Of a DNA stretch of 64,000 nucleotides, positions 4,803-37,782 are shown piece by piece. The translations under genes and the position numbers were made by a program. The notes under the pieces were generated by a model. The model had not been told where the DNA came from. It was given only the letters and a program-made list of their open reading frames with translations, and made no database searches. Origin of the DNA: an uncultured Candidatus Saccharibacteria bacterium (lineage in GTDB: Bacteria > Patescibacteriota > Minisyncoccia > Phycocordibacterales > UBA918); assembly GCA_964350645.1 (NCBI GenBank), contig CAYGJY010000001.1, positions 399,939 to 463,938 of the forward strand, given 5' to 3'. Position 1 is the stretch's first letter; each line of letters opens with the position of its first letter.

Positions 4803-4805
4803 AGC

Positions 4806-5744: not shown

Positions 5745-5856
5745 GAAAAAGAATGCGCGAGTCGCTGGTTTATTATCGAAGAAAAGTGACAAAAACGCAA
5801 CAGCCACTGCTTTATAACAGTGGCATAAGTTGCATTGACAAATTTGAAGTGAGGGT

Positions 5857-7719: not shown

Positions 7720-7796
7720 ATCAATAAATTACTCTTAAGTAATTGTAACGGAAGTAAAAAAGTTTTTCAGTAGTTATACACAGGCTATACACAAGC

Positions 7797-9005: not shown

Positions 9006-9007
9006 AT

Positions 9008-11978: not shown

Positions 11979-11982
11979 AGCA

Positions 11983-14900
11983 TTAGTCCCCAGTTACGTA
12001 GAAGGTATTTACCCCACTGTGCGGATTACTCTTTGTACCAAACGGGATAGCAATTCCCCAATAAATCTCGTCAGCAACTGGCGGTGAGACGGTGATTGGT
12101 TTTGACAAATCGACTTCAATCAACTGCGGAGTCGTACTTGGAAGATTAAAGCAGTCAACACATGAACTGTACGTAAATGTCGACGTTGAGAAAATTTGCT
12201 GAGTAGCTGGGATAAATGATGTCAAACCATCGGTCAGATCAGTTCCTTCGATTTCAATGTCGATGGCAGCGTTACCAATGTTGGCAACAGTGGTTGATGC
12301 ATTGGTCGATCCGGTGTCATCGAAGACAGCCAGCGCTCCGTAGTCGATATCATCATCAACTTCAAGAGCCCACATTGTTAGTAGATCAATACCTGGACTG
12401 GTCGCCAAATTACTCGCACCACTCTTATCAACCACTTCCAAGAAGGCATACCATAACTCTCCACCGTCGGTATCCGTCGGGTCAGCATGGAAGGCAAAGT
12501 CAGCGTAACACTGTAATTCACAGCTATTACCACTACAGTTCGTAAAGCTACATTGTGGTGTTGTGGTAGCAATATAACAGTTGTTATTGTCCGCCGTACA
12601 TGCGGCAGTGGCTGTCGTAGTAAACATAGTGGAGGTAGCCGCATCTAGATCGGTGTAGCCGTTGAGGTCAGTCACCGTCGTGGTTGCAAAGACTCTGGCA
12701 GTTCCGCCTGGGTTCAAGATAATATTCTGACCAAGGTTGAACTGAATTGGGCCAAATGTTGGAGGGAACTGCAGTGTCAACTCTGCGACTCGAGCGTATG
12801 AATCAAGTACTGAACCGTTATCGGTTACTCGGAAACAGTACGCCTCATCTGCTGCATTAGCAGTGACTACCACAGCATACTCAACTTCTGTATAGTCACC
12901 CTGGTTAATAGAAAGACCAGCAGTCTTATTCGATGGATCTTCAACAAATGCACCGGCACTGAAATCACCAATCGTACCCGTAAGAAGATCTACCGTGGCT
13001 GCACCGTTAGCCACAGTGGTAGAGGTCGCCATACAGATCGCTGAACTACCGCATGATGCGTCAACTGGCACTGCAGCGTAACTGCCACCAGAGACTGCCG
13101 CACAGGTTGGTGCGGCTCCTTTGCCAGCAAACTCAAGAGTCAGTAGCTGACCAGTCAAATCGAGACCACCGTTTTCAATAGCCAGTCGCAGGCGTTGTGG
13201 TACACCGATAGTAACCGTATCGAGAGTAGTATTTTGTGCTTTTGCCCAACTTGCACCACCGTCAGTCTGTTCAACACCAAAGTAAATAGTTGGCTCTTGA
13301 TTGAGTCGTGGTCGAGACAAGAAGCTGTCCCAGCCACCGTTATTTGTCCAGTACGTAAAGCCGTATCCTCCAGATGAATAGGTTGAATCAGCCGCTGACA
13401 CCGATGCCAATAGTGAACCTACTGGATCAAAGACCGTAACGTCAATCGAATCATCGGTCTGCCAATCAATTTCTACTTCATACCAACCAGTACCTGCAGT
13501 AGTGAAGGCAGCTGATGAAGTTGCCAACCTAACAACTGGTGTGAAACTGTCATTGCGGCGAGCATTTTTCACCAACGACACTCGCTCAGTACCGAAGAGC
13601 TCCATACACACACCATAGTTCTGGAAGCCAGATACCGGTGCCTGCACACCGAAGAGCGTACATATCTCGTCAGAGTCACCATCATCAACATCAATATACT
13701 GACGGTAGCGGATAATCTCACCCTGACTGACCGTCTGATCAAAGCGGGACATACCACCATTTGAGAAGTTTCCTGGGACAACCGCACTGAGTCCATATGA
13801 ACCACCAAAATTAAATGCTGCATTTGTCTGGAAATCACTTGTTTGGCCACTGTATTCGGAAATATTATTGTCCTCAAAATCATCCGCAGCGATAAATGTA
13901 GCGGTACTCGAACTGGTGGTGTTAACTGCCACGTTATCGTAGTACATATAAATACTTGTTACTGTGTCGCTCAGTAACGTCGGTACTGACACCCACACAA
14001 GAGCTTCAGTACTAGCGGTGAAACTTTCAACCCAATACGGAATCTCAGTTGTGCCATCGTCACTCGTGAAGCGGAGATCTTCAAAGTCACTCTGCATGTT
14101 GGCATCATATGGAATAGTAATTTCAATCGCTGCATCAGTGTAGGTTGATGCATCGCGGTTACGTAGACGAATCTGCTGTCGCTTATCCCAATCAGTATCA
14201 AACCACTCATCAGCTGGTACGCCAAGACCTCCATCATCATTGCGCCAACGATATTGAGTCTGTTCAATTAGTTGACAATCACTATCGTCCCAACGGATGG
14301 ATCCACAATCATCACTGACGTCACCATCATTATCAAACGCCTCACCGTAGAGTGATCCGCCACCATTTCGGAACGTCCAGGCACTGGTGGTGGTTGCTTC
14401 AAGATCGACGTTAGTACCAGAGAAACCTCCGTTATAGAAGTACGTGCCATCAATAATCAACGACGCATTCGCATCAAGCGCACTGGAGGCGAGCGAAATC
14501 ACTGCGCCAGTACTTGTGCTAAGTGTGAAGGAACCATTGTCGAGCAAGATAACAGTTGTGGTACCGAGTAGATTAAGCCCAAAATCATCCATTCCACTTA
14601 TATCAAAGTATTCTGCTTCGAAGGTACCACCAGCAAAAGTAAATCCATATGTGCCAGTATCAGACTGTACCGTCGTGGTTGCCGCATCAACACCAACAAT
14701 CTCAAGACGACCGTTATTACCAATACTGATACTTGAAGTCGCTGCATCAACAAAAGTTACCGTAACTGGCCGCGCGCTTGCACCAAGTGTCGAACCATCG
14801 AAATTCTGGTCATTATTCCAAAACTCAGTCGTTGTATCAATATTAAAGTCACCATAAATGAAGAGATCCCCGGGGGTGCCCGCATGATCTTGTGAATACC

Positions 14901-17900: not shown

Positions 17901-20900
17901 CGAGGAAAGTCCCTGATTCAACAAAGATAGTGCCAGAACCAGTCAGACTCCAGAATGATGAACCGGCATCAAGGAAATGCCCAGCAGCAATAGTTAATAC
18001 TCCGCCGACAGTTGTTGTGGCAGTATTGGTTCTCGTTGTCGTCCCAGTTACGGCGCCGTTACCCAAGGTAAGATCGAAGAACGTCCAACCCTGGGTACCA
18101 CCAAGTTCAGTCGTCGTTTCTACTGTAACTTCCCCACCACCCATTGACACCAATCCGTCACCACTGAATGTACCTGCTTGGAGTGTAATATCACCGGTAC
18201 CGGTCACCGTTCCCGTAGCTACCGTCATGTCAGCTCCGATTAGTAAATCTGAGTTGATGTTCCAACCGCCGCCAACTCCTGTAAATGCAAGTTCACGGAA
18301 CGTCGTTAAAGTAGCATCATCATGAGTAATGGCTTTACCGGTCGTAGTAGCGGTGAAAGTAAAGGTAGTTGAAGCAGCGGTGAAAGTTGAACCAGTATCC
18401 TGGAAGAAACTACCACCAATACTGTGTGACTGGTTAGTAGCCGCTGTGAAAATAGCGCTGTTATCAATATGTAATGAACCATCGTAGACGGCACCAGAGC
18501 CACCTGATTGTAGGGTAATATTTCCACCTGGTATAAACGTCGTGCTTGAAGCTATCAGTAGTTCGGTTTCTGGTCGTACAATCAAGGTATTGGTCGTACC
18601 GGTTGCCGCCACAAAACGTAAATCAGGATCATCTGTTTCATCAAAGACAGCCATCCGAGCAATGGTCATCGGCGCCACGTCTTCATGGCGTGTCATGACA
18701 CGATTAGCATACACATCTAAATCAATGATATCTCCAGTTGGTGTTCGCGTAACGATACTTCCCTTTGCAGCCACATTGTCGAGGTATACAACAATTGTTG
18801 GATCACCACCATATGACACATTACTAAAGCTGTAACTGCCATCGAGACCAGCACATGGTACTGAATCAGTGTACGCACCACCATCAACTACGATGGTAAC
18901 CGCATCAGTCACACCATCACACGTTGGACCACCAAGTGTACTTGCCCCATCATCAGCATAGACAGTACCTGCAACTGTAATCTGGTAATTACTATCATCC
19001 CAACGGATATTACCTGGATCTAAGTCACCCGTATCATAATCTTCACCATAACGATCACCGGATCCTTCACGGAACCACCAAAAAGAATTTGGTGATCCAC
19101 TTAAGGTTACGTTGACATTACCACCACCGGTGACAAAGTCGGTATTGAAGTATTGAGCAGCCGGGTTAGTGTCGATCGTGCTTGCATCCACCGTTACAGC
19201 TGATGAAACTGCCGGGATAGTAAAGAGAAGATTATCAAAAGTAGTGACGGTCGTTGAGCTAAGCAACTGGAAGCCACTTGGGTCTGTGCCTGTCATAGTA
19301 AAGTATTCGGCGTTTAAGGTGGCTCCTTCTGTTGCGAGTGCAAATGAACCACTCTGGGCATCAACTGTTGTTGAAGCGCTGCTCGTGCCAATAATAGACA
19401 AGTTTGAGGAGCTAGCAATCACACTTGCACCATTAGCGACGCGCACATCAACCTGCCGCTCACTGCCACCTGAGAGATCAGCGCCATCAAAGTCAGTGGC
19501 ATAGCTCCAATGTTCAGTGCCGGCACTACGAACATACTCACCAAAGATATACAAGTCACCGCTATTACCCGCATGATCTTGAGAGTAGATCGACGCAGTA
19601 TCTTGGGTATCGTATGTTGCAGCAGTACTATTCCACATAGCAATATCGCCATCACCGGTAATTGACAAGATGTTGTAATCATCACCGTCGTTAGTCTTGT
19701 CGTTAAAGGTAAAGTCTCCACCACCACTTAATAACAATGTGGCTCCAGCCCAACTAGTCGAGGCATTACTCATAGCGTTCGAGAACGTGCCGGTAGACTC
19801 AAGTGTCAGAGCTGTATCTACTGTGAAATCATTACCATCGATTAGAGTAATAGCATTGGTTGCAGTGGCTGCTTCAGTCACGGTCCAGCCACCACCATCA
19901 CCATTAAATGCTAGGGTATAGAAAGATGAGACACCTGGAGCGACAGAGTGCCCAGTTGTATTGGCATTAAAGGTAACGGCTCCGGTGCCAGCCGAGAACG
20001 TTGCATCATTGTCAAATGAGCCTCCGATAGAGAAATTGGTGCTTGGGAATTGCGCCGACGCACTTTCAATCACTACGTCACCAGTTGCAGTCACACTCGC
20101 ATCAGCAAAAATACGAGTGCTCGTGCCTCCGCCAGAGGTAACACTATAGAAGGTTGTTGGCGCAGACATATTGCTGTATTCAGCTGCAATCCAATCGGCT
20201 GATCTTTCAATTTGTGAAATTCTAAACTCATCAACCAATCCACCAAAGTCAAAAGCTGTCTGCCAGCGACCAATGTTTGAACCACCCGTGTTGGTTGGAA
20301 TCGTAGTTTCAGCACCAGTCCTGGTATTTCGCAGTACACCATCCACATAAATATAGCGATTGCCTGCCTGCATAGCTGAAGTAACTAATTGCCAGGTACC
20401 ACCAGCTGAAATTCCCGTTGGTGCGGCGTCAACGCGGTTTCCGGTACCAGTACCCCCGACGCTAAATGTATAGGTATCGTTGTTGGTGGTACCGCTAATA
20501 TTGTCCCAAATCAAAATTGGCGTCCCACTTTGGGTAGCAAACAATACGTCATCTGCACCATCTTCATTTACATTTACCCACGTAGAGATAGTAACTTCGC
20601 TACCACCATTAAGTTCAGATAGGTTGCTGTTCAAATTAATATAATCATCACCGCCACTGTCAGTGATACTGACAGCTGTTCCTAATATTCCTGTAGTGGT
20701 TGTCAATGTTCCAACCGCCGTTGCATCTCGATCAAAACTGGTTGAATCAACTGCATCTTCATCCTCCATGTGATAGACAGCTAAGAAGTCATCATCCCAG
20801 ACATTTTCTGCTCCCAGCGGATCATCGATCAGATAATCACTTTCGCCACTATTGCCATAATACACATAGAAAGTACTGTTCGTGGTTGAAGACAACGTAG

Positions 20901-23900: not shown

Positions 23901-26900
23901 CGTAGGTGAGCAAGGTGTTGACGGTCGTCCAGTCATTATTATTGACAGTGGTTGTCCCATATTCACCAATGTCATTACTCAGCTCGATCGAATCAGAGGT
24001 TGATGCAGTTACACCATCAAGCACTCCTTCAGCAAATTGAGCCTGAGTTGTTTGGAACCATGTTGAGATACTGACACCCGTATCAACAGTAAAGTTATCG
24101 GCTACAGACCAAGGTGAGAATGAGTTAGACGCGTCTGGGTCTTTAGCCCTGACCCGCCACCAGTACGTCTCACCATCTGATAACGGTGAACCACCCGGTA
24201 TCGTATAGGTGATGGTGTCGCCGGAGTTAAACGGTCCGGTGTCAGCTGGCGTTGTCAGGTTTGCAAAATTAGCTGGTGTTGTTGTTGAATTAATCGTAGT
24301 CGAACTAGTCAAGAAGGTCGGATCTGTACTGTACGAGATTTCATATTGAAGATCGTCGCCTTGTGGGTCAGTCGTAGTGAAGTCAAACGTTGGTGTTGTA
24401 TCAACAGTCTTTTCGTTATCAAACGGGTCACCGAGTGTCGGTGTCTCAACTCGCTGCCCCCACGTCACGCGCCAATCAAATAGCTCAGGATTCACTCCTC
24501 CAAAATTAGCTACCAACCTGATTTCATTGTATGTAACAGTGTCTAAGTTGAGAATATTGATTGGTCCGGAAGTAAAGCCGGCACTGTTGCCAGGCAAATC
24601 ACTATCCGGAATATCCTGGAAACCAGATCCGGTGTTGTATTCGATTTGATACGTAATCGTACCCGCATCGTTAAAGTCGACCTCACCCCACGCGTTCCCT
24701 ACATCAGCATCATCAAAGTCAATCGGTGTACTAACTACCTGCGCTGTTCCCGCTCGAATAATATCACCTGAGCTATCTTCGAAGGCAATGATTGCCACGT
24801 CTTCATCAGCATGACCTCGGTCTGCCCCATTTCCTCCTTCTTCAACTGAGACGGTTACATCTGTTGCAGTTGGGGGTGTATCTGTATCAACTTGAGCATA
24901 ACCTCCTTGAGTACCATTCATAGTAGACATCTGCACTACCACTACCCCTGGTGCGCTGCCGAATGTTTGTGCGAAATTAAAGGTATCCGGTACATCATCC
25001 ACGAACCCAGCAGTCCCATCGATCCCAGTATTAAAGACATCAAACGGTACTAAATTGTTTGTCCCTATTCCAGTATCAAATACAACTATATCAATATCCT
25101 CTGCAGCCGTATGACCATTGGCGTCTAGGTTGTCATTGAGGTATACACTCACCTGTGAGGCTGTTGGTGGATTTGAAATATCATTCCCGTCATAGACACT
25201 TGAGACTACCCAGTCCTGGTCATTGATGGTGGTCACCATTGTCATCACCGCTGGCTGGCCACTAAACGAAGTCGGGAACACGATGTCAGTTCCACCTGGA
25301 TCAGTCGGAATGGTATTGCCAGCGATCGCTGAAACGCTCGTGCTCGTAGCAAAGACTCTGAGCCCATCATCTCCATTGTCCATGAGATAATCGCCTGCTT
25401 CCATCACAATGTAGTCAAAGGTTGAAGTACCGGAAGAATCTTTAGAGAAGTTTTCTGCTAAAACATCAAAGGTAGTCGCAGTCTTATTGAAGACTCTGGC
25501 AGCTGGCTGATTTGGACTAGCGATACTCCGAGCATATCTAACCGAACCAACCACTACTGGGTTAGTAAATGAGTTGTTGAGATTAACAGTAGTAGTAGCT
25601 CCGTTAGTAAGTGCGACTGAGCCATACTCACCAATAAGTGAACTACCACCAATGTCGGGCTCAATCGAATCACTACCTGATGAGACTGCACTTGAGAGTG
25701 AATTCGTTTCAAACTGCTCATCAGTAGTCTGAAACCACTCAGACACAGTGATACTCGTGTTAATCGTAAAGCTTTGTGGTGATGTCCATGCACTGAATGT
25801 ATTTGATCCGTCTGGGTCAATCGCTCGCACGCGCCACCAATACGTAACTCCATTACTCAGTGCAGACGGTGGTGTATAGCGAATTAGTTGTCCATTGTTG
25901 AATGGAGTTTTGTCAGATGGAATCAAGACGTTTGCAAAATCAAACAGATCAGTATCTGAATTACTATCGATCAGCGTACTAGCGAAAGTATTATCAGTAC
26001 TCACTTGTACTTGATAATCGAGCTCATCCCCTCCTTGATCAGACGCCACAAATTCAAGCGTCGGCTGCGTACTTGATGCGTGTTCATTATCGAAACGCTC
26101 AGTGGTAATTGGGGTTTCTGGAGGGCCAGCGGTTGCGAGTTCCGGGTACGTAGTATAGGTAACTAATTCTTCTTCAGTTGACCGAATCATGCGGAAACAA
26201 TAATTTGCGTTCGGAGTAATTACGCCAGATACTGCAGTTATTACCCAGTCGAACTCGACCGCTTCGCCATTTCCAACTTCATTTGGTAACGTAGCACTGA
26301 AATTTTGTTCTTCATAGGAAGCCTCAACGTCACTATCACTCAACAGAGTACTCGGTAACGCATCCCCGTCAGCCACACCAGCGTTGTCATAACCAGCAAA
26401 GGCGGCCGTAGTACTGCCAATATCACCTAAGTCACGCCAGCTATTATCGGTGACCGCTGCGCACGAGTTCGCCTCAGCATATTGCAGAACAAAAGCTGTT
26501 GAATCAACAGTACCAGTTCCATTATTTGCCAAGAGATTCATGCGTAAACGAACAACATCTCCTCCATTCAGTGATTCAGTACCAGTGATGGCATCTCCTT
26601 CATTAGCGGAATCTCCATCATCAAGTGGCCAGGGTGTTGTCGGAGTTATGGCGTTTGTGTTGACATACCAGCGATAATTTAATTGTTCGTACTGAGCATC
26701 TTGATTCTCCTCTTCAGCACCAAAGGTTGAATTAAGATAGAGTGCATTAAATTTCTTAGCCTGAACAGCACTCCAAGTATTTGTTTCGTCATCATTGTCA
26801 AGACCAGTTTCAATGTGGTCATAGTACATGTAGAACGGTTTGTTGTCCGTAGCTACTACTTGAGTTCCTGGACCATAGTCACTGGCTGGATTAATGTTTA

Positions 26901-29900
26901 ACGCACCAGGATACTCACCTGTTGGAGTACAGGTACCAGAATCAAGAAAACCTCCAGCTGCGGTTTGGACTTCGATATTCACCTCTCCAAATCTTGGGGC
27001 ACACACTATGCTTACGTACTCAGCTGACTGAGGAATGATGTAGCGGGTTCCAAATTCAGGTGTCGGCAAGAAACGGCTGGTTTCAGTTCCGTCACCGTCA
27101 GCTTCTTGTGAAGCACCAATCGGACTAGTCTGATTGGTGAGACGTACACCATCTCCTGCCCCGCCAGAACCATTGGCACAAAAACTGTTACTTTGCTGTG
27201 CTCCCCGATTCATTCCCGTAGTTGTTCCGTTAGCTGTGCCACTAGAACAATATATCTCCACACTAGTGCCGCTAGTGATAGCTGCGTAGCGATAGTTGTT
27301 AGAGCGCACTCCATATAGATCACGCAGAGTTGGCGGATAGGCTACAAAACTGTCTCCCGGACTGTTCTGATAGAACAAAATCGGTTCGTCAGACTCGACC
27401 ACTGGAACGTCACTGCCACCGAGTGTAAGACTAAATAAGCTTGTTGCCCCTGCAGAGATTGTTCCACTGACAGTTGGAGTAACAGCTGCTCCAGCAAATA
27501 CATCTACGGCCGCAGCCGTAAACGGTGCGTGTATGTACAGGTCTTCACTACCACGGTTGGTAGAACTAATATGCGTAGTCGTAGCAAACGAGATAGGGAC
27601 CGGCGGCTCACTCGAGTTATCAATTGAGCGTGCAGTAATTGGCCCAAGAGCACTAATAACTGAAGTGGAGGCATACTGTGCTGAAGTAAATGAAGTCGTC
27701 TCCCCACTCTGCAGCGTTACCGGCGCACCACCATCGATACTCACTTCGTTATTGTCGATCAAGCTGTAGACGACGATATCGTTCGTTTGGGTATCGTTGA
27801 CGACATAGTACAAATCCGTAGTGGTGCTGTATGTAAACGGCTCGTACTCATCACTTTCACTCGTAGCTGAATCATTGCCGTAGTAAAGATAGATAGTTGA
27901 TGTAGCGTTGCCCGGCACCTCATTTACTTGTACCCAGATATCAGCTTCGTCAGCAGTATTATCGAAGTGCTGTACCCAATGATCGAGTTCATTGAATGTA
28001 GTAGGGATTACAACCTGACTGGTAGACGTAGCGTAGAAGTCTGTACTGGTAGACTGGTTGCGGAAAGAAGCTGAAATCCAGTCAGCTGACAACACATTGT
28101 CATGCACTCTGAATTCGTCTAAGAATCCCTCGTAGTTCTGTTGATTGTCCCCTACAGACAGACAACTTGTATCCTGCTCACCTCCAATCATAATACAATC
28201 AGCCGGTACCGAGAGAGCCGTCATTGCTTCAGCCGAAGGACTTTCATTATCCTCAACACCGTCAACATATAAACGCCATTCGCTGCTGTTAGCATCACGA
28301 ACCACAACCATATGCTTCCAGCCAGTACCAGTTACGTCTTTATCAAAAGTAAATATATCTTGGGCACTACCATCAAACAGTGTGATCTGAGTGTTGCGCA
28401 AGAATAAAATGAGCTCATTATTAGCGCCCGCGTTAATAATCGATTGATCACCATTTTGTGACGTATTGAACCAGAAAGAAAACGAAAGTTCGTTCTCACC
28501 ATTTAGGGCATCACTTGGGACCAAAATATAGTCATCTGGATTCGTATCACGAGCCAATATTTCTTGTCCACGGCCAAGCTTGCCACTCTTTCCAGTCGCA
28601 GTAATCTCGTCATCTCCATCATAGTCATTGCTAGTAGCATCTTGATATAGACCAGCATTTCCATTACCAGACGCATCTTCTTCAAGGTGGTAATTGAGAA
28701 TAAAGCCATTGGTCCAGACACTCTCTGATCCAAATGGATCATCTGCCACATAGCCCGGGGCGGCTGCATTGCCGTAATAAATATAGAAGGTAGTGTCAAC
28801 ACTGCTCGAAATACTGTCAGCCTTGAAGTGCAACTCACCGGTTTCTGCGCCGGTATCAATTGACACGATTTCTCGTGACAATTCACTCTGTCCATCAGCC
28901 GTGGTAATTCGAATATCATCTCCATCAGATTGGACATTAGCAAAGAAGTCAGCTCCAAGATCGGCAAGATTAACGTACACCGGGAAGTTACTCAGCGTAG
29001 CGTCAACTTCACTGGCTTGAATGGTTATTGGTAAACGATTATCCCAGTTGACATCATACCAATCGTCAGTATTGCCAGGTACTTCTTGAATAAAGCGGAT
29101 GTCTGAACCGTCACTGTTTACGTTAGACCAAAAATCACTTTCTGCTGGGGTAATTTCCAAGAAGACTTGCTGTTCGGTCGACGTTGCCCCATTACGATTA
29201 TCAATCTCAATTGGCTTTCGATACCGCCAGAGACTACTCCAAAACGGGTCGAGAAGTCCATACTCACTATCTCCAATCGCCTCTATCCAAAACTCACCCT
29301 GTGTAAACGGTGGGAAACTAATCTCCATCTTAAAGTACTTGGTTTCTCCTGGTGCAATCTTGTAAGTATTTGGGGTGTGGTTACTCACTTCGAAGTGATC
29401 GGGAACAGGCTTGATGTCAGGTCCAAAGCCAAAGAAATCAAACGTCTTTTTTACTAGACCTCGCGTATCTGGCGGAGTCCCGGTCGCAATTGGTTCTGAT
29501 TCCCAATTTGGTAGATACTTGGTCATTTCATGTTCGCGCACTTTTACGTTATCTACCACACAGCTAGTGTTGTCACCATCGAGTGAATCACAAGTCCGGA
29601 TAATATTCGTATCACGACACGAATACATTTGAGCTGCATCTTCTGTACTTGTTAAGCTTGATGAAGCCGTCGACAAGGAAGTAGTCGCTCGGATACTTGA
29701 TGTACCCACCGCTGGAATATTAAGAGCAGACATTGCCTGAGCAAACGGCAAAAGTGTTTGTCCAGCTGAGCGGAATGCAGTTGTTGTAGCAAACAAATCC
29801 TCTTCGGGTACGGCTGTGGCTGCTGGCGTCTCTGAAGCAGACTCAGTATCAAGCACTTCAGAAGAAACACTCTCTGGTTCAATTTCATCAGGAGTAGTAA

Positions 29901-31959
29901 TCTCCTCAACCTCCTCAGGCACAGATTCAGTCGTGCTAGCTTCAAAAATCTCTTCGATCACATTAGTAATCTCTGCTTCGAACTCTGTCTCAACAACTGG
30001 ATCTCCAACTGGTACGAACGCAGGAGTTATTTGTCGTGAAATATCAAAAATATCTTGACCGGTTGGATTATCCGTTTGTTCCCAACCAGCCTCACAGTGA
30101 TAGACATACGAACGATACTCTGGCACAACGACCTCTTTTGGCTTATTTATATTCCATTCTTCAAGACTAAGTACTTCACCAGCTCCCGTTGGGAAATATG
30201 TTTTCAAACTAAACTCGTCTTCATTGTCGCTCTCGTTCGTAACATTGAAATATGTCACTGTCTTGGTGAGACCGGAGTAGTCAGTTTTGTCAGACTTAAT
30301 AATCAAAGTCTCATCTTCGTTTTCATCTGTGAAAGAGAAATTAATTACCGTACCATCTGGGAGCACCAATTGATCACCCGATAAAACCTGATCACTGAAG
30401 CCCGTATCAGCTAGCACTGAATCGATGTCGATATCAGACAAGTTAGTAGCCTCAAGTGTGAAAAGCTCTAACCACACACTCTCAATAAAGATATTTTCTA
30501 AGGCACGCGGGTCATGTTCATAACGTAACTGAATCACTAGATCATCAAGTACTGCAGGATCAGTAATAGTTGGCAACGCAAATAAGAAGTACCCACCATT
30601 AATACTATTTGATGCTTCACCATCAATTAAAATACTTGACCCTTCATCATACGTAGCACCGTCATCGAGTGAGTAGTGTACCTTGAGTTCCTGAATGACA
30701 TCGCGAGTAATCTTCTCTTTCGCTGCAAACGAAACCCGTAACTGTACGTTACCAAGTTCAAGTTCTTCATTAAAAATTGGCAAACCAAAACCTTCGAGGG
30801 TCATGGTATACGGTGCGCACTTCTCTTCACACAAAGGCACCGAGACAGACTCTGATTCAGTAGACTCCTGACCAGCTTGACCATTAGTCTCGCTGACTGG
30901 CGTCGTCGTTGCTATATCTAGTTCTACTTCATCGCTACTAGTAGATACAGTACTAGTAGCAAGTTCAGTTAGATCAGGTTCTGCAGTGGTCGTGGTTGCT
31001 GGCAAAACGTCTTCAGTAGTAACTTCTGGTGTCACAGTAGCTGTAGTTGTCGCAGCCATTACTTGTTGAGCTGGAGTATTAGTCGCTCTAGATGTGCGCT
31101 CAGTATCAAGGACGACCTCATCATCAACCACAGGTAACACTTCCGCTGCCTCATCACCAGTTGTTGAAGCTGACTCCGTAAATGGCAATAGATCAATTGC
31201 TGAAGCCAAAGCAAATTCAAAGAAACTGGTGACTCGTTTGGAGATAGTAGTTGAAGAAGAATTTTCCGGCGTCACGGCAGGGACTTCAAGTACCTCCATT
31301 TCTTCTACTTCTTCTTCACCTTCAGTTTCAGTTTCAGTTTCAGTTTCAGTTTCAGTTTCAGTTTCAGTTTCAACAATAGGTTCTTCGTCAGACTCTTCAA
31401 CTACCGTATCCACTATTTCGACTGGTTGCTCTAGCTCTTCTATCGCAGCTTCAGTACCAGTTGCTGTAGTTGCTTCGGAATTCTCTTGATCGACGTCAAC
31501 AACACTCTCTACCTCTTCTGATGACACATCAGCTGTAGTCAGCTTTGAGTCTTCTGTAACATCAGATGAAGACTCAAGCACAACTTCATCCTTATCCTGG
31601 TAACGGCGCTGATAACCGATATGCTGAGTGCTATCAATATAGGCTGAGTTAATTTTGTTGAAATCTTGATAGAGGGAGAACGCTTCAACATTTTGATCAC
31701 GTACAGTATCGACATTTCTCCATCCTTCTGTCTTAACCGTGTCGGGGAAGACATGTACAGTTTGAATGGTATAACGTTGTCCGGCCGTACTTTGGGCATA
31801 GACAAGCGCAGATGTAGAAATGAGAAGCGTAACTGCAAATGTAAGCAGGGTAAACTTGCGAGCACTACTAAAACACCCGATTTGTAATTTTATCGCTTTA
31901 AATAAGGATTTTATGAAGTTTTCTTTGGTTTTGTGAGAGTGAAATCTCATTACCAACAA
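11983..31959 (-). CDS. Giant secreted protein (6,658 aa) with three DUF2341-like + concanavalin/LamG-like modules, long Thr/Gly/Ser-rich β-helix-like repeat tracts and kb-scale internal duplications
   Basis: A single uninterrupted ORF with an N-terminal signal peptide (LLTFAVTLLISTSALVYAQS). There are three DUF2341-like blocks: DVNWDNRLPITIQASEVDATLSNFPVYVNL...DGDDIRITTADG...TTFYIYYGN, DFDSAWLYRDVITINATEVDDDLTDFPVYVDL...DGGDIRITESDG...STFYVYYGN and DTDWDKRQQIRLRNRD...FEDLRFTSDDG...TSIYMYYDN. A large repeat, GEDYD.GD.G.IRWDDS...AGTVY...DG.YS.S...V.RH...P..I..MAVFD..., recurs at least three times. An (ET)8 tract lies near the N-terminus. Confidence 0.85.
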   Translation of the reverse strand: MLVMRFHSHKTKENFIKSLFKAIKLQIGCFSSARKFTLLTFAVTLLISTSALVYAQSTAGQRYTIQTVHVFPDTVKTEGWRNVDTVRDQNVEAFSLYQDFNKINSAYIDSTQHIGYQRRYQDKDEVVLESSSDVTEDSKLTTADVSSEEVESVVDVDQENSEATTATGTEAAIEELEQPVEIVDTVVEESDEEPIVETETETETETETETETEGEEEVEEMEVLEVPAVTPENSSSTTISKRVTSFFEFALASAIDLLPFTESASTTGDEAAEVLPVVDDEVVLDTERTSRATNTPAQQVMAATTTATVTPEVTTEDVLPATTTTAEPDLTELATSTVSTSSDEVELDIATTTPVSETNGQAGQESTESESVSVPLCEEKCAPYTMTLEGFGLPIFNEELELGNVQLRVSFAAKEKITRDVIQELKVHYSLDDGATYDEGSSILIDGEASNSINGGYFLFALPTITDPAVLDDLVIQLRYEHDPRALENIFIESVWLELFTLEATNLSDIDIDSVLADTGFSDQVLSGDQLVLPDGTVINFSFTDENEDETLIIKSDKTDYSGLTKTVTYFNVTNESDNEDEFSLKTYFPTGAGEVLSLEEWNINKPKEVVVPEYRSYVYHCEAGWEQTDNPTGQDIFDISRQITPAFVPVGDPVVETEFEAEITNVIEEIFEASTTESVPEEVEEITTPDEIEPESVSSEVLDTESASETPAATAVPEEDLFATTTAFRSAGQTLLPFAQAMSALNIPAVGTSSIRATTSLSTASSSLTSTEDAAQMYSCRDTNIIRTCDSLDGDNTSCVVDNVKVREHEMTKYLPNWESEPIATGTPPDTRGLVKKTFDFFGFGPDIKPVPDHFEVSNHTPNTYKIAPGETKYFKMEISFPPFTQGEFWIEAIGDSEYGLLDPFWSSLWRYRKPIEIDNRNGATSTEQQVFLEITPAESDFWSNVNSDGSDIRFIQEVPGNTDDWYDVNWDNRLPITIQASEVDATLSNFPVYVNLADLGADFFANVQSDGDDIRITTADGQSELSREIVSIDTGAETGELHFKADSISSSVDTTFYIYYGNAAAPGYVADDPFGSESVWTNGFILNYHLEEDASGNGNAGLYQDATSNDYDGDDEITATGKSGKLGRGQEILARDTNPDDYILVPSDALNGENELSFSFWFNTSQNGDQSIINAGANNELILFLRNTQITLFDGSAQDIFTFDKDVTGTGWKHMVVVRDANSSEWRLYVDGVEDNESPSAEAMTALSVPADCIMIGGEQDTSCLSVGDNQQNYEGFLDEFRVHDNVLSADWISASFRNQSTSTDFYATSTSQVVIPTTFNELDHWVQHFDNTADEADIWVQVNEVPGNATSTIYLYYGNDSATSESDEYEPFTYSTTTDLYYVVNDTQTNDIVVYSLIDNNEVSIDGGAPVTLQSGETTSFTSAQYASTSVISALGPITARSIDNSSEPPVPISFATTTHISSTNRGSEDLYIHAPFTAAAVDVFAGAAVTPTVSGTISAGATSLFSLTLGGSDVPVVESDEPILFYQNSPGDSFVAYPPTLRDLYGVRSNNYRYAAITSGTSVEIYCSSGTANGTTTGMNRGAQQSNSFCANGSGGAGDGVRLTNQTSPIGASQEADGDGTETSRFLPTPEFGTRYIIPQSAEYVSIVCAPRFGEVNIEVQTAAGGFLDSGTCTPTGEYPGALNINPASDYGPGTQVVATDNKPFYMYYDHIETGLDNDDETNTWSAVQAKKFNALYLNSTFGAEEENQDAQYEQLNYRWYVNTNAITPTTPWPLDDGDSANEGDAITGTESLNGGDVVRLRMNLLANNGTGTVDSTAFVLQYAEANSCAAVTDNSWRDLGDIGSTTAAFAGYDNAGVADGDALPSTLLSDSDVEASYEEQNFSATLPNEVGNGEAVEFDWVITAVSGVITPNANYCFRMIRSTEEELVTYTTYPELATAGPPETPITTERFDNEHASSTQPTLEFVASDQGGDELDYQVQVSTDNTFASTLIDSNSDTDLFDFANVLIPSDKTPFNNGQLIRYTPPSALSNGVTYWWRVRAIDPDGSNTFSAWTSPQSFTINTSITVSEWFQTTDEQFETNSLSSAVSSGSDSIEPDIGGSSLIGEYGSVALTNGATTTVNLNNSFTNPVVVGSVRYARSIASPNQPAARVFNKTATTFDVLAENFSKDSSGTSTFDYIVMEAGDYLMDNGDDGLRVFATSTSVSAIAGNTIPTDPGGTDIVFPTSFSGQPAVMTMVTTINDQDWVVSSVYDGNDISNPPTASQVSVYLNDNLDANGHTAAEDIDIVVFDTGIGTNNLVPFDVFNTGIDGTAGFVDDVPDTFNFAQTFGSAPGVVVVQMSTMNGTQGGYAQVDTDTPPTATDVTVSVEEGGNGADRGHADEDVAIIAFEDSSGDIIRAGTAQVVSTPIDFDDADVGNAWGEVDFNDAGTITYQIEYNTGSGFQDIPDSDLPGNSAGFTSGPINILNLDTVTYNEIRLVANFGGVNPELFDWRVTWGQRVETPTLGDPFDNEKTVDTTPTFDFTTTDPQGDDLQYEISYSTDPTFLTSSTTINSTTTPANFANLTTPADTGPFNSGDTITYTIPGGSPLSDGETYWWRVRAKDPDASNSFSPWSVADNFTVDTGVSISTWFQTTQAQFAEGVLDGVTASTSDSIELSNDIGEYGTTTVNNNDWTTVNTLLTYDNMVVVASPKYAFNGSTNGRTVQVRNKTADSFEIKAENYTLSLAGATDIDYIVMEAGDWQIQDGGGGLRIIAGTQESVSVVEGSNPGYTTGSVVDFNPDFGSTPGALVTVSSANGSKWVGAFVDDGTQTGEVGTTEMHVSLGISLDTDTVRVPEDIDYIAFEVGTGDNNGTLFDAFNTGNTITESETESATTFNQTFSSAPQVIVVQNNANNGGDGGFAQVDTDTVVTATDLDITIAEIGASAGNHATEDVSVLAFENGTGIITRESSSGGGLSGTIASEEVLFSDGLGPKFDRALFSSTGSGTTTLQIQYQTGGGLWELIPDVDLPGNSTGFTSSPVDLTGVDVATYPVIRLFATLQCAAASCPSLDDWTVEWSEGVTMTGTLKEYDRLTNVANATVTVSVNGGVANRTGVVTAGIWSISNVTAFAGDTVTVFASTTNDAEEAVGVFVYDGLGDMTGVELFEQHLSFSSDETRTITLSKLAASDNSTTGNDNVFFDVDGSGNLLVCAVGSCSDANLYIGSNNVFIPATSTNEVITTHDFVNYGTTTLSGNTLNVSGSWDNQGDLTTGTAAVVFTATAGSETLSDADGTLDFNDLTFGSGSGSATWQSYNPIDLSDDLVVAFGTFDRSSSTINVAGDVTIQSSGVISGVATTTFDSAGLSIWTDNSAAKQNLGTVIVDGTAKTVRLGSSVLADSLTIGANDTLNAGGAFTLSLEGDFTNNNVFTARTGTIAIVGTATDAVITTGGSSLYSFRASTTDGGSVSFNQTSVTMLGDFTIATGTVTLPTTSTLIGGSFSNTGGTFAHNNAEVRFTGSGTRTIQTNGSVFLNNFYDVSFTGSAQWSFLDTNATTSNTFAISNGTVVFPSGQLSIARDFTTTGSGAFDANGGEVLFLARSADNITANGSSFNDVRIRQGTPVRGGDFDSAWLYRDVITINATEVDDDLTDFPVYVDLSDFDSSFFANVNADGGDIRITESDGLTEVPREIVSISTGGETGELYFKATTLSSTTNSTFYVYYGNSGESDYLIDDPLGAENVWDDDFLAVYHMEDEDAVDSTSFDRDATAVGTLTTTTGILGTAVSITDSGGDDYINLNSNLSELNGGSEVTISTWVNVNEDGADDVLFATQSGTPILIWDNISGTTNNDTYTFSVGGTGTGNRVDAAPTGISAGGTWQLVTSAMQAGNRYIYVDGVLRNTRTGAETTIPTNTGGSNIGRWQTAFDFGGLVDEFRISQIERSADWIAAEYSNMSAPTTFYSVTSGGGTSTRIFADASVTATGDVVIESASAQFPSTNFSIGGSFDNDATFSAGTGAVTFNANTTGHSVAPGVSSFYTLAFNGDGGGWTVTEAATATNAITLIDGNDFTVDTALTLESTGTFSNAMSNASTSWAGATLLLSGGGDFTFNDKTNDGDDYNILSITGDGDIAMWNSTAATYDTQDTASIYSQDHAGNSGDLYIFGEYVRSAGTEHWSYATDFDGADLSGGSERQVDVRVANGASVIASSSNLSIIGTSSASTTVDAQSGSFALATEGATLNAEYFTMTGTDPSGFQLLSSTTVTTFDNLLFTIPAVSSAVTVDASTIDTNPAAQYFNTDFVTGGGNVNVTLSGSPNSFWWFREGSGDRYGEDYDTGDLDPGNIRWDDSNYQITVAGTVYADDGASTLGGPTCDGVTDAVTIVVDGGAYTDSVPCAGLDGSYSFSNVSYGGDPTIVVYLDNVAAKGSIVTRTPTGDIIDLDVYANRVMTRHEDVAPMTIARMAVFDETDDPDLRFVAATGTTNTLIVRPETELLIASSTTFIPGGNITLQSGGSGAVYDGSLHIDNSAIFTAATNQSHSIGGSFFQDTGSTFTAASTTFTFTATTTGKAITHDDATLTTFRELAFTGVGGGWNINSDLLIGADMTVATGTVTGTGDITLQAGTFSGDGLVSMGGGEVTVETTTELGGTQGWTFFDLTLGNGAVTGTTTRTNTATTTVGGVLTIAAGHFLDAGSSFWSLTGSGTIFVESGTFLEDTSTVTYGGVASANILSTPYYNLTIAGSAGTPVYSFGALGVLVQNDLVVAGTAPTTANLNTSDPVMTVLGDVRIGANGTLSASDSNTLTLSGSFTNTGTFNANSGLVYFDGTGAHTIAAGGSDFADLTLAGTGLATFTESATSSNDVVFASTSLVTVNPSTQFAVGGTFSNEVGGGATTWTGSTLYLYGGQAYEINASTTTDVYENIIVGASTHPRMWNSIVGSVTTNGGSLYSMDHTDITGDLYIFGDYQNSTFSDYWSYAIDFDGTDLTGGNERQVDVYVEGGGSASWTAGALRAIGTSTATTTIQNQGSGTYALIVGGTTAFNWNEVLVRNIDSDGVQFTGTPIVSGFANLDLLAEINSASMVSVQGSVINANPAKNFSGSSFNADTGVTGAINVELLGSSLSAWRFTEHSGNRDGEDYDLDTGDPGEIIWDDSAAIITISGNVYQSNESSVSTACDDSTTNIVLAIAGSLAQQASSSCSSADGSYSISDISFSANDTLTLYINGEAEKASTVTIDPITSITDMDLYENHVIVRHANTDPITIEDMAVFDSSNDADIPFTAIDAGTDTLTLPANAKLLIWDTKEFAPGGNITLSGGGAGAAYDGTLEARADAIFTAAGSESHSIGGSLIFGTDAVFEAANSTFTFTTDDAGRLIDTNDQAFNTVVFNGAGDWAVTNVTLTTNDDLTITAGSLTLPTATTTVAGSFVNSDTFDANGGRLVFTSGTGGETVTFGGNDANEVVFNGAGSWTISDVNATATDSFVVTTGAVTLPSDTLVVGANFIVLDTITANGGTLALAQNTGTADLTLSNESLGSLDIVGGAEFTMTDVEVNLAGSLTIASGTLNVASTTLAIGGSLDATNGIMNTATGTILFNSSDLGETVNPGANEFYNVVIGGLNGGWIFQTATVTNNFSLSSANQFTLDTNQTLSVGGVFTNAVGGANTTWLSSTLRLLSGTDYSINTKNSGGDVYSTLEIAANTNIRSWDSSATTPKLTAPTSWYSQDHAGTPGDLFIYGDFNIDTTTEFWNNDQNFDGSTLGASARPVTVTFVDAATSSISIGNNGRLEIVGVDAATTTVQSDTGTYGFTFAGGTFEAEYFDISGMDDFGLNLLGTTTVILLDNGSFTLSTSTGAVISLASSALDANASLIIDGTYFYNGGFSGTNVDLEATTTSAWTFRNGGGSLYGEAFDNDGDVSDDCGSIRWDDSDCQLIEQTQYRWRNDDGGLGVPADEWFDTDWDKRQQIRLRNRDASTYTDAAIEITIPYDANMQSDFEDLRFTSDDGTTEIPYWVESFTASTEALVWVSVPTLLSDTVTSIYMYYDNVAVNTTSSSTATFIAADDFEDNNISEYSGQTSDFQTNAAFNFGGSYGLSAVVPGNFSNGGMSRFDQTVSQGEIIRYRQYIDVDDGDSDEICTLFGVQAPVSGFQNYGVCMELFGTERVSLVKNARRNDSFTPVVRLATSSAAFTTAGTGWYEVEIDWQTDDSIDVTVFDPVGSLLASVSAADSTYSSGGYGFTYWTNNGGWDSFLSRPRLNQEPTIYFGVEQTDGGASWAKAQNTTLDTVTIGVPQRLRLAIENGGLDLTGQLLTLEFAGKGAAPTCAAVSGGSYAAVPVDASCGSSAICMATSTTVANGAATVDLLTGTIGDFSAGAFVEDPSNKTAGLSINQGDYTEVEYAVVVTANAADEAYCFRVTDNGSVLDSYARVAELTLQFPPTFGPIQFNLGQNIILNPGGTARVFATTTVTDLNGYTDLDAATSTMFTTTATAACTADNNNCYIATTTPQCSFTNCSGNSCELQCYADFAFHADPTDTDGGELWYAFLEVVDKSGASNLATSPGIDLLTMWALEVDDDIDYGALAVFDDTGSTNASTTVANIGNAAIDIEIEGTDLTDGLTSFIPATQQIFSTSTFTYSSCVDCFNLPSTTPQLIEVDLSKPITVSPPVADEIYWGIAIPFGTKSNPHSGVNTFYVTGD
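31318..31372 (-). repeat. Hexanucleotide microsatellite (TTCAGT)~8 inside the giant gene, encoding (ET)n
   Basis: ttcagtttcagtttcagtttcagtttcagtttcagtttcagtttcagtttca is read directly. It is in frame, so copy-number change alters length but not frame. Confidence 0.9.
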
Positions 31960-32006
31960 GTAGCCCGCCGGTTCATAATATATAACCCGGGGCTATTATA
32001 AATTAT

Positions 32007-32035
32007 AGCGCGCCGGAGGTGATCTCCGGCGCGCT
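32007..32035 (-). terminator. Perfect 12-bp GC-rich hairpin between the 32068..33597 stop and the giant-gene promoter
   Basis: AGCGCGCCGGAG-gtgat-CTCCGGCGCGCT. On the minus strand it is followed by TATAATTTATAATAG, which has a TATAAT -10 about 40 nt upstream of the giant-gene ATG. Confidence 0.6.
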
Positions 32036-32067
32036 AGGTGTGGATTGATTATACCAAAATAACTTTA

Positions 32068-37776: not shown

Positions 37777-37782
37777 ATCCGT

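Follow-up and report, generated by a model that had tools for sequence, protein, structure and literature searches.

The window (the whole stretch of DNA that was analysed, 64 kb) carries a giant gene whose product is, on balance, probably a Sec-exported, very acidic, all-beta extracellular fibre of ~700 kDa, from a bacterium of the Paceibacteria (Parcubacteria-type CPR/Patescibacteria) and probably glycan-binding. The Paceibacteria assignment is taken from homologous loci; Rfam and tRNA scans of the window yielded nothing of taxonomic use. Attachment to a host or partner cell is a plausible role, which agrees with the export signal, the lectin-type modules and the proposals made in the literature for giant CPR proteins; the colinear conservation of the gene across many species would fit a conserved structural role in the envelope equally well. 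Paceibacteria rank with the most abundant of the ultra-small bacteria that are uncultured, and a gene of ~20 kb is a notable share of the genome, as related complete or near-complete genomes are ~1 Mb (CP060229.1, 994,774 bp). Because it is kept intact and colinear in many species, the gene must matter to the species that carry it. The first-pass description of a giant modular surface protein with DUF2341 and LamG modules, a beta-helix-like stalk and a domain in common with the 620-aa neighbour holds in outline; its module counts and its repeat unit do not. The analysis provides a trustworthy ORF, a corrected module map with coordinates, and a conserved locus with fixed partners (a mechanotransmission ABC system and a protein that shares the C-terminal domain). 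All features of the giant gene, its 5' boundary and its numbered neighbours are on the reverse strand (-).

The giant ORF (11983..31959) consists of 6,658 codons from a TTG, plus the stop. As the first-pass annotation had claimed, it is a single ORF covering 31% of the window, and the translation is open throughout without an internal stop; the motifs quoted in that annotation are present in it. The ATG at 31950-31948 (codon 4) is the likelier start, giving a protein of 6,655 aa, and the alignment to the ortholog P0102 (6,589 aa) begins at residue 5. The mature protein was computed to have a mass of ~697 kDa and a pI of ~4.05. The earlier concern that assembly errors might break the ORF was settled by a second assembly of the same organism, which is 100% identical over 16.7 kb; 8.3 kb of the giant gene were compared and every base matches, and the partial call of the gene in that assembly is unbroken over 6,455 codons. 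Since the second assembly matches and P0102 aligns end to end (q5-6653, 56% identity), colinear module by module, the giant ORF is not an assembly artefact. Between repeats of the gene, identity at the DNA level reaches no more than 70%, over 166 nt, and collapse or expansion in the assembly is therefore of no concern. An artefact, or a fusion of separate genes, would be in keeping with the few relatives whose annotation divides the region into two or three genes (loci L001/L048, L002/L016 and L005). However, the L001 and L005 breaks are frameshifts, with homology going on in another frame, L002 is the only true split and results from an inserted cassette, and 76 of 82 loci show an unbroken giant ORF up to the edge of the examined DNA. 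Together with the identical assembly, the colinear ortholog and the divergent DNA repeats, these observations make an artefact or fusion extremely improbable. A consensus scan identified a GC-rich hairpin of 13 bp followed by two TATAAT boxes at 31995..32036, after the upstream cohesin gene, and this is likely the 5' boundary of the giant-gene transcription unit; a hairpin was found solely at this boundary of the gene string. A diversity-generating retroelement target was considered and rejected, the window containing neither a template/variable repeat pair nor a reverse transcriptase.

The N-terminus has the features of a Sec-type signal peptide (aa 4-55, 31795..31950), identified by reading of the sequence, a Kyte-Doolittle scan and comparison with 14 orthologs. 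It comprises a basic n-region and an h-region (F36-A55), the sole hydrophobic segment of the protein in the Kyte-Doolittle scan, with a likely cut at VYA|QS as judged by eye. The 14 orthologs have a like N-terminus, with a basic n-region, a hydrophobic segment of ~20 aa and an A-x-A-like site. An acidic, Thr/Glu-rich low-complexity linker including (ET)n follows (aa 131-379, 30823..31569; 28% identity to P0102), and then a conserved N-terminal region with no Pfam match that serves as a family marker (aa 380-908, 29236..30822). This region was matched by 382 proteins at E ≤ 0.001, among them giants of 5,408-7,696 aa in which the match lies at an equal N-terminal position.

Both domain families named in the first-pass annotation were matched with Pfam, using cut-offs of 23.4 bits for DUF2341 (PF10102) and 27.6 bits for Laminin_G_3 (PF13385). 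DUF2341 stretches scored above the cut-off at aa 1012-1068 (30.9 bits), 1323-1373 (46.8 bits) and 5958-6033 (64.1 bits), and slightly below it at aa 3651-3707 (22.3 bits). Three copies had been claimed; the domain is indeed present, the count is four, one of them split by a nested DUF2341+LamG insertion, and just two copies of the exact 'FPVYV...GEL.FKA' block are present (aa 992 and 3631). The split domain, D0, has its N-terminal half at aa 909-966 (29062..29235) and its C-terminal half at aa 1313-1376 (27832..28023; the 46.8-bit match, to profile positions 13-63 only), and the joined halves align with D1, D2 and D3. The nested insert, module A1, opens with D1 (aa 967-1075, 28735..29061; 30.9 bits) and holds the first Laminin_G_3 or concanavalin-like domain (aa 1142-1296, 28072..28536; 75.2 bits, with Pentaxin at 26.9 bits). 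Module A2 (20185..21159) consists of D2 (aa 3601-3710; 22.3 bits) and the second Laminin_G_3 domain (aa 3769-3925; 70.3 bits). The module A copies span aa 946-1313 and 3583-3942 and are 30-42% identical. D3 is the best DUF2341 match (aa 5916-6035, 13855..14214; 64.1 bits), and a DUF2341 match was obtained for each of the 34 C-terminal-module homologs. A LamG domain after each DUF2341 had also been proposed, and this stood for aa 1142-1296 and 3769-3925; the third region, aa 6036-6225, had no Pfam hit at E ≤ 0.5. The hhalign probability for this region against a LamG1/LamG2 profile was 0.45%, a weak test because the profile contained two sequences only. AlphaFold2 modelled aa 6036-6225 as a beta-sandwich, and the region may be a jelly roll at the level of the fold.

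Whole-protein self-BLAST gave the diagonal only, and repeats were resolved with a fragmented query. A unit of ~300 aa recurring at least three times, as described previously, was not recovered; the actual units are ~360 aa (two copies), 550 aa (two copies) and 800 aa (2.5 copies), with 30-43% identity at the protein level, and they are read as ancient protein-level duplications. Among the motifs of the supposed unit, 'IRWDDS' occurs three times, and 'MAVFD' and 'HSIGGS' only twice. The region between D0 and the first module B has no family match and no assigned fold (aa 1377-1955, 26095..27831; 59% identity to the ortholog). Module B is present in two copies (aa 1956-2510 and 2511-3066, 22762..26094), resolved by fragment self-BLAST and Pfam; the aligned stretches, aa 1956-2504 and 2513-3064, are ~42% identical. 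Each begins with a putative Ig/FN3-like domain, Ig_Rha78A_N (PF25788, cut-off 27.4; single copies slightly below it at 25.0 and 26.9 bits, whole-protein sum above it at 46.1 bits), and continues with sandwiches that have a weak match to H-type lectins. That match (PF09458, cut-off 24) was below threshold, with 19.8 bits at aa 2877-2924 and 16.8 bits in a long query, and is suggestive only.

A Thr/Gly/Ser region rich in beta-strands (aa 3067-3600, 21160..22761) is 28-37% identical to the solenoid parts of module C and gave a sub-threshold match to DUF3739 (19.1 bits, cut-off 27). Module C itself (14215..20112) comprises C1 (aa 3950-4748), C2 (4749-5515) and C3 (5516-5915); the aligned stretches (aa 3952-4611, 4749-5408 and 5516-5915) are 38-43% identical with a period of ~800 aa. 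Each copy opens with a predicted beta-solenoid of ~380 aa, in which near-invariant residues lie in the motifs (Y)SQDH, DLYIxGDY and (D)FDG; the GEDYD...IRWDDS motif lies after this core, and C1 and C2 then add a beta-sandwich and further solenoid. AlphaFold2 modelled aa 3950-4480 with pLDDT >90 over the first ~370 residues and placed ~30 short strands and one helix in this model. The core is thus predicted to be beta-solenoid-like, a fold class read from the predicted strand pattern. The beta-helix suggested in the first-pass annotation is upheld to the extent of this confident solenoid-like pattern, and not by family or structure searches: Pfam beta-helix families (Pectate_lyase_3, Beta_helix and similar) had no match in the giant protein, and Foldseek with the module C core gave no significant match (best E 0.24 in PDB and 1.4e-3 in BFVD, TM-scores ~0.2). 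The best of these non-significant matches were tailspikes, tapirin, Ag43 and pectate-lyase-like proteins. Autocorrelation of hydrophobic and Gly/Asn residues over aa 3950-4300 had weak peaks only, at 19, 38 and 56 residues, and was given no weight as evidence. Single-sequence and profile searches returned no relative of solved structure for any module.

The conserved C-terminal module continues after D3 with Cys-rich beta-sandwich domains (aa 6036-6458, 12586..13854) and closes with a C-terminal domain (aa 6459-6658, 11986..12585) which ends in the conserved YWGIAIPFG...PH.G.N.F motif. The sharing of YWGIAIPFG with the neighbouring 620-aa protein, noted previously, proved to be part of a homologous domain of ~200 aa (33% identity over 212 columns, E 2e-18). 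No membrane anchor or sortase signal was found in this domain; the sole LPXTG-like match in the protein is an internal LPTTS at aa 3469, and the C-terminus is hydrophilic, with conservation reaching its last residues. The AlphaFold2 model of the C-terminal module is all-beta (pLDDT 86.8), and its Foldseek matches in PDB were generic Ig-like strings (integrins, complement C3, alpha-2-macroglobulin) with TM-scores <0.2, which is uninformative.

Downstream of the giant gene the order is fn3 protein, ABC ATPase, permease, 620-aa protein, TM-anchored protein, dockerin protein, and then either a 385-aa protein or a cohesin-like anchor, and synteny of six to seven of these genes is retained in nearly all loci. 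Neighbour 1 (10467..11978) is a secreted protein with three FN3-like domains, whose start codon lies 4 nt past the giant stop. Neighbours 2 and 3 (7797..10330) are an ABC ATPase of 440 aa, which carries a C-terminal extension of 210 aa, and a MacB_PCD+FtsX permease; judged by sequence, the pair is a type VII (MacB/LolCDE/FtsEX-like) ABC system. In most loci the ATPase is 73-83% and the permease 76-84% identical, and in a more distant subset 45-52% and 52-63%, respectively. Conservation of the pair is much higher than that of the genes around it; the system could serve a housekeeping function and owe its position only to inherited gene order. Neighbour 4 (5857..7719) is the Cys-rich protein of 620 aa; it has a hydrophobic segment at its N-terminus and the homologous C-terminal domain in its last ~210 aa. 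Neighbours 5 and 6 (3684..5882) are p358, with a signal peptide, two sandwiches, a C-terminal TM anchor and a likely start at 5744, and a secreted dockerin protein of 372 aa with a Cys-repeat, an Ig domain and a dockerin. Spacing in the window is operon-like (giant to fn3 gene 4 nt, ATPase to permease 2 nt, p358 to dockerin gene 3 nt). The neighbours were also compared with the WxL-locus surface complexes of Firmicutes, which are marked by a DUF916/WxLIP protein bearing a C-terminal TM anchor together with WxL-domain proteins. The p358 family resembles the window ORF at 42224-43321 (hhalign 89.7%, E 1.8e-6); this ORF has a marginal match to WxLIP_PGBD (29.0 bits, cut-off 27.3), WxLIP was matched by 0 of 21 p358 homologs, and a WxL domain was not found. 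None of the NCBIfam models covers the giant, the 620-aa or the 385-aa protein.

By sequence comparison the giant is an ortholog of proteins of 5,400-7,700 aa in Paceibacteria, with which it shares the N-terminal region, the colinear module order, the 759-aa C-terminal module (YWGI.IPFG) and the downstream fn3, ABC, FtsX and 620-aa genes. In addition to P0102, fifteen giants of 4,073-7,696 aa have parts of the architecture. Modules in the same position are 48-73% identical between orthologs, compared with 37-43% between paralogous repeats. In species-representative Paceibacteria genomes, 87 sites with relatives of the C-terminal module were confirmed, and the locus alignment is colinear over 12 kb among relatives, with 40-58% identity across many genera. 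Many orthologs lack module A2, and in many of them module B occurs only once. A weak homolog (P0069) combines MotA_ExbB, LamG_3 and DUF2341. Conservation across many genera would be unusual for a determinant of host specificity, and fits a housekeeping envelope structure.

In the proposed mechanism the solenoid and Ig-like modules would form a long stalk, of the order of 100 nm (taking ~4.8 Å for each solenoid coil and ~4 nm for each sandwich domain), displaying the LamG, DUF2341 and H-lectin-like modules, which could then bind glycans of a partner cell or of some other surface; we infer these binding functions from the family names. Once freed of its signal peptide, the protein would stay on the cell non-covalently. 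The likeliest hold would be pairing of its conserved C-terminal domain with the counterpart in the membrane-associated 620-aa protein or with further products of the cluster, retention through the 620-aa protein being pure conjecture on our part. ABC systems of the MacB, LolCDE and FtsEX class perform mechanical work outside the membrane rather than substrate transport, and the pair encoded here may assemble, release or actuate the surface complex. As a tentative extension, to which we give a rather small probability, the giant and the six to eight following genes might together constitute one undescribed Paceibacteria surface machine, in which cytoplasmic ATP hydrolysis would assemble, release or move a lectin-bearing fibre of ~100 nm for partner contact; the ABC pair of this proposed machine carries a unique ATPase extension, the 210 aa noted above.

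An appreciable, minority probability goes to the giant as a structural element of the envelope (a fibrous coat, an S-layer-like layer or a spacer) that is general to Paceibacteria, and not a partner-specific adhesin. Such an element would account for equal module order at the 87 sites and for a giant gene that always lies within one conserved string of surface genes. The lectin-type modules are moreover not markedly more variable than the stalk (identity to P0102 of 64% for LamG2, 73% for B1 and 45% for LamG1), and one lineage has the protein as three separately secreted pieces with no module lost, as expected of a self-assembling structure. However, no SLH, S-layer or cell-wall-binding domain is present, and gain and loss of modules, as seen for A2 and B, is a usual trait of adhesin-like proteins. 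A structural and an adhesive role of the giant are compatible with each other.

Returning to the extracellular, probably glycan-binding fibre, its beta-solenoid modules might instead be enzymes, polysaccharide lyases or hydrolases that attack the host wall or capsule with the lectin modules for targeting, which we regard as unlikely. The near-invariant D179, H180, D207, D209 and R219 of the aligned module C unit, in the motifs SQDH, DFDG and R.V, are found in all homologs, most near-invariant residues are kept in all three copies of module C, and the non-significant best fold matches are tailspike depolymerases and pectate-lyase-like proteins. Those matches indicate a fold class only (Foldseek E of at least 0.24 in PDB and at least 1.4e-3 in BFVD), no Pfam or NCBIfam enzyme family was matched anywhere in the giant, and the invariant residues might equally bind Ca2+ or cap the solenoid. 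Very unlikely, in our estimate, is a type IV pilus tip adhesin, by analogy with archaeal DUF2341 proteins and PilY-type adhesins. CPR bacteria are rich in type IV pili. In a model of Methanococcus pili, DUF2341 proteins sit at the pilus tip, in line with their proposal as pilus-tip adhesins of archaeal type IV pilus loci (PMC4858521). In the giant, however, a prepilin motif is lacking at the N-terminus (no G at -1, no E at +5), and PilB, PilC, PilT and pilin genes are absent from the 64-kb window and from the conserved downstream string.

Among known systems, RTX adhesins (LapA, SiiE, MpIBP), which leave the cell by type I secretion, are of comparable size, with a long repetitive extender, ligand-binding modules near one end and an ABC gene nearby; the giant differs in having no RTX nonapeptides (GGxGxDxUx), an N-terminal Sec signal in place of a C-terminal secretion signal, and an ABC system of the MacB/FtsX type instead of the HlyB type. 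To our knowledge, CPR bacteria have no outer membrane. In a test for FhaB/TpsA relationship, no Haemagg_act match was obtained in the giant and no TpsB-like gene in the window; the sub-threshold DUF3739 match is the only related one. Ag43-type passengers, tapirins and the P22/HK620 tailspikes belong to the fold class predicted for the module C core, a likeness of architecture only, whereas the giant lacks an autotransporter beta-barrel and any signature of trimerisation or catalysis. Unlike cellulosome-type scaffoldins and dockerin proteins, the giant itself contains neither cohesin nor dockerin modules; such domains do occur in genes next to it. The DUF2341+Laminin_G_3 unit is common to the giant, to bacterial ExbB/TolQ-fused forms and to archaeal pilus-locus proteins (PMC12505986, PMC4858521); in the giant, by contrast, the units are cassettes in a fibre of 6.6 kaa, one of them nested, with no ExbB channel or pilus machinery nearby.

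Within the CPR, giant membrane-associated proteins of Vampirococcus have been proposed for host attachment (PMC8080830). The giants of Vampirococcus lugosii, and the Cys-rich surface proteins of CPR/DPANN (PMC6792436), are large to very large, multi-domain membrane or surface proteins of ultra-small symbionts, with proposed host recognition and attachment; their domain content is another one (WD40, TPR, PKD and saposin in Vampirococcus) and they stem from other CPR classes, and their likeness to the window protein is one of description only. The closest comparison is with Patescibacteria, where 149 proteins >4,000 aa were counted, 82 of them with FhaB and/or DUF2341, and adhesion or host interaction was proposed (PMC11809585). 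That paper, on Patescibacterium danicum, found no full-length homologs of its own giant examples, and the orthologous family defined here by its fixed module order, 759-aa C-terminal module and gene string was not described there or in the other literature searched. These giants were only counted in that study, and the window protein differs in having no FhaB/TPS domain; phylum, size class, DUF2341 and proposed role are common to both. Giant DUF2341-bearing surface proteins of Patescibacteria have already been reported, and the protein encoded in the window is a typical member of them and not a new kind.

The giant protein is encoded by an ORF at 11983..31959 (-), which comprises 6,658 codons counted from a TTG, with zero internal stops; residue numbers are given from this TTG. 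Translation more likely starts at the ATG of codon 4 (31950); the closest full-length ortholog (P0102) aligns from residue 5. In all orthologs the N-terminus opens with a run of basic residues, continues with a hydrophobic segment of ~20 residues and then has an A-x-A-like site. In the giant, the sole hydrophobic segment is F36-A55, and the cleavage-type site is VYA|QS. A scan of the whole protein for an LPXTG signal, RTX repeats and dockerins found none of them. The mature protein is ~697 kDa, with a pI of ~4.05, and is rich in Thr (13%), Ser (9.7%) and Gly (9.4%).

The signal peptide (aa 4-55) is followed by an acidic, Thr/Glu-rich linker (aa 131-379), a conserved N-terminal region without a family match (aa 380-908), and a DUF2341 domain split by an insert (aa 909-1376). 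The two halves (aa 909-966 and 1313-1376) enclose another DUF2341 (aa 967-1075) and a Laminin_G_3 domain (aa 1142-1296); when joined, they align full length with the other three DUF2341 domains. After a region without an assigned family (aa 1377-1955) come two B modules, ~42% identical (aa 1956-3066), each with an Ig_Rha78A_N-like domain, sandwiches and a sub-threshold H-lectin match. A Thr/Gly/Ser-rich beta region (aa 3067-3600) precedes the second DUF2341 plus Laminin_G_3 pair (aa 3601-3925), in which DUF2341 scored 22.3 bits, slightly below the cut-off. Two and a half copies of module C, with a period of ~800 aa, occupy aa 3950-5915, and the protein ends with its best DUF2341 match (aa 5916-6035, 64 bits) and Cys-rich beta-sandwiches (aa 6036-6658). 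The first-pass annotation had counted three DUF2341 domains; four were found, one of them split by the nested DUF2341 and Laminin_G_3 insert. Of the three LamG regions it proposed, two were HMM-supported; the third (aa 6036-6225) was not matched by any Pfam model and did not resemble the other two in a profile comparison, a weak test given the thin profile. The 300-aa unit said to occur three times was replaced by the 800-aa module C, and IRWDDS alone among the quoted repeat motifs is present three times.

For the C-terminal module, a model of the last 759 residues that drew on 34 homologs (mean pLDDT 86.8) was an all-beta string of sandwich domains; a Foldseek search against the PDB returned generic multi-Ig proteins at TM-scores < 0.2. 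The model of a module C unit (aa 3950-4480) had pLDDT > 90 for the first ~370 residues, and its ~30 short strands and one helix form a beta-solenoid pattern. No significant structural neighbour of this unit was found by structure search, and the top weak matches were all beta-helical (P22/HK620 tailspikes, tapirins, Ag43 and pectate-lyase-like phage proteins). The strand pattern and these matches uphold the earlier beta-helix proposal as a fold class, without membership of a family. Sequence and profile searches gave no relatives among solved structures for any module of the giant.

The possibility that repeats had been collapsed or expanded in the assembly, raised with the ORF, was addressed at four levels, and the single giant ORF is taken as real. 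At the DNA level, the best internal repeat pair is 70% identical across 166 nt; the repeats are old, with nothing able to collapse or expand during assembly. A 27.8-kb contig from the Logan assembly of run ERR3534981, which may share its project with the source of the window, was 100% identical to window positions 3583-20330. Direct base comparison covered the last 8.3 kb of the giant gene only, and the gene call on that contig has 6,455 uninterrupted codons, reaching the contig end. P0102 (6,589 aa, another organism) aligned with the giant as one segment (residues 5-6653, 56% identity). Modules at the same position in the two proteins are 48-73% identical, and paralogous repeats inside the giant 37-43%; therefore, the duplications are older than the split of the two organisms. 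Finally, the ORF bearing the C-terminal module was uninterrupted up to the edge of the DNA compared in 76/82 related loci (at least ~4,090 codons wherever 10 kb was at hand). An assembly artefact is accordingly considered very improbable.

Homologs of the C-terminal module (40-58% identity) are labelled as DUF2341 proteins of Candidatus Kaiserbacteria, Paceibacterota, Parcubacteria and Minisyncoccia. With one genome scanned for each species, 87 sites encoding a relative were confirmed, and the 80 loci kept were from Paceibacteria-type MAGs (Kaiser-, Nomura-, Adler-, Lloyd-, Sungbacteria and others), some of whose records are generically mislabelled. The genome of the window is bacterial, as its ECF sigma factor, BipA and DinB show, and many secreted proteins surround the giant. 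The upstream 10 kb of related loci is colinear with the giant (e.g. residues 2558-6653 at 53-55% identity in L003, L004 and L017); modules have been lost or gained among loci, and A2, one of the DUF2341 and LamG repeats, is often missing. The N-terminal region was matched by 382 proteins (E ≤ 0.001), including giants of 5,408-7,696 aa in which it has the same N-terminal position. The longest match in a word-indexed protein search was ~1,400 aa, and giants of 5,400-7,700 aa were present in the HMMER-scanned library; the word index seems to lack or under-sample very long proteins, and the ~1,000-aa length of relatives that it implied was wrong.

Two exceptions to an intact gene were distinguished. 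In L001/L048 (JAWKSP010000002.1) and L005 (JAWKSR010000001.1), the annotation breaks the orthologous gene up, and homology to the giant carries on past each break in another frame, with many such shifts. These breaks are most likely indel errors of those assemblies, in which case public annotations understate gene size. In L002/L016 (Ga0535658_0000208 / JBLIMJ010000001, one contig), the orthologous gene is truly split into three. The same cassette occurs twice in L002 (3900-4460 and 9800-10360) and consists of a stop codon, 20 nt with GCGCTATAAT, and an ATG opening a new ORF; the signal peptide of the new ORFs is near-identical (MYQANFNQSLERRELKCTRAFYY...), and they also carry an Ice_binding (PF11999) domain. 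The two cuts lie at the equivalent position in successive C modules, so the fibre does not need to be covalently continuous.

Downstream of the giant gene, and in its orientation, nearly all loci keep the same succession of genes for an FN3-repeat protein (10467..11978 (-) in the window), an ABC ATPase, a MacB_PCD+FtsX permease, a 620-aa protein (5857..7719 (-)), a protein with a signal peptide and C-terminal TM anchor, and a dockerin protein; the last position is held by a 385-aa protein or a cohesin-like TM-anchored protein. Identity to the window is 73-83% for the ATPase and 76-84% for the permease in most loci, and 45-52% and 52-63%, respectively, in a distant subset. In the window, spacings are 4 nt (giant to FN3 protein), 2 nt (ATPase to permease) and 3 nt (p358, the TM-anchored neighbour, to dockerin protein). 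A 13-bp GC-rich hairpin and TATAAT boxes lie immediately 5' of the giant gene, and terminator-like sites within the window's gene string showed no excess over chance. The C-terminal motif noted earlier in the giant and the 620-aa protein proved to belong to a homologous domain (33% identity, E 2e-18) spanning the last ~210 residues of the latter. The ABC pair is of the MacB/LolCDE/FtsEX class, which is known for passing force to the outside of the membrane and not for carrying substrates across.

The ATPase (9008-10330 (-)) has a ~210-aa C-terminal extension, helical-looking by eye, that matches no family, and in most related loci the ATPase is conserved much more strongly than the neighbouring surface proteins. 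In one strain, which matches the window at 97% identity downstream of 10389 (L087 1-660, ERR3534996_9105; L083, ERR3534978_35624), a 196-aa acidic protein that has a signal peptide and C-terminal TM anchor is encoded directly upstream of the ABC gene. This protein is absent from the window, with a similar piece in L078, and represents strain-level variation at the fn3/ABC junction. p358 (358 aa, 4806-5882 (-)) is a distant homolog of the ORF at 42224-43321 (-) (hhalign 89.7%), which barely passes the WxLIP_PGBD (DUF916-type) model, and family scans of 21 homologs gave no confirmation; the pair hints at a possible link to WxL-type surface loci of Firmicutes.

Elsewhere in the window, a cohesin/dockerin set (32068-33597, 1076-2140, 3684-4802 and 34145-36049, all (-)) includes two cohesin or cohesin-like proteins with C-terminal TM anchors, one with a cytoplasmic coiled-coil tail, and two secreted proteins ending in a type I dockerin; in a Patescibacteria genome, this set suggests a cohesin-dockerin system for display at the surface that has nothing to do with cellulose degradation. 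Three tandem EamA-family transporter paralogs (36901-39627 (-), DNA repeats 76-84% identical) and three FGE-sulfatase-like paralogs (36055-36855, 40131-40952 and 40984-41793, all (-)) look like local gene-family expansions (36055-41793). A second large secreted protein (49762-54018 (-), 1,418 aa) has Gmad2, Big_7 and SdrD_B Ig-like domains and a C-terminal PG_binding_1; these domains mark it as a wall-bound surface protein, and in the giant, by contrast, there is no wall-binding domain.

The export signal, domain content, predicted folds, orthology and synteny of the giant lead us to favour, by a little, a Sec-exported surface fibre. Carbohydrate-binding modules, presumably binding glycans, would be carried on a stalk of solenoid and Ig-like parts, and products of the same locus would keep the fibre on the cell without a covalent bond, possibly via the shared C-terminal domain. 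The ABC pair might play some role, and the fibre may serve in attachment to a partner cell. A conserved structural component of the envelope, favoured by the unusual colinear conservation, is a distinctly less probable reading of the same protein. Enzymatic solenoids acting on the host wall are improbable, being suggested only by the near-invariant D/H/D/D/R residues of module C. A type IV pilus tip adhesin is more doubtful again, as the giant has no prepilin signal and neither the window nor the conserved downstream string has pilus genes.

 Among 2.1 million Patescibacteria proteins, 149 exceed 4,000 aa; FhaB and/or DUF2341 domains occur in 82/149, and adhesion or host interaction has been proposed for them (PMC11809585). 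DUF2341-bearing giants of this group were thus previously known, and that of the window is real but ordinary for the group. Giant surface proteins of Vampirococcus have been proposed as attachment factors (PMC8080830), archaeal DUF2341 proteins have been modelled as adhesins at the pilus tip (PMC4858521), and DUF2341 also decorates ExbB-like proteins (PMC12505986). Checked for the defining feature of each class, the giant is not an RTX adhesin (no RTX repeat), a TPS exoprotein, an LPXTG protein (no LPXTG signal) or a scaffoldin. In the limited literature searched, no description was found of the orthologous family with its fixed architecture, of the nested DUF2341 or of the conserved downstream string, and these appear undescribed there. 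The value of this locus lies mainly in its conservation and in a testable link to a mechanotransmitting ABC system.
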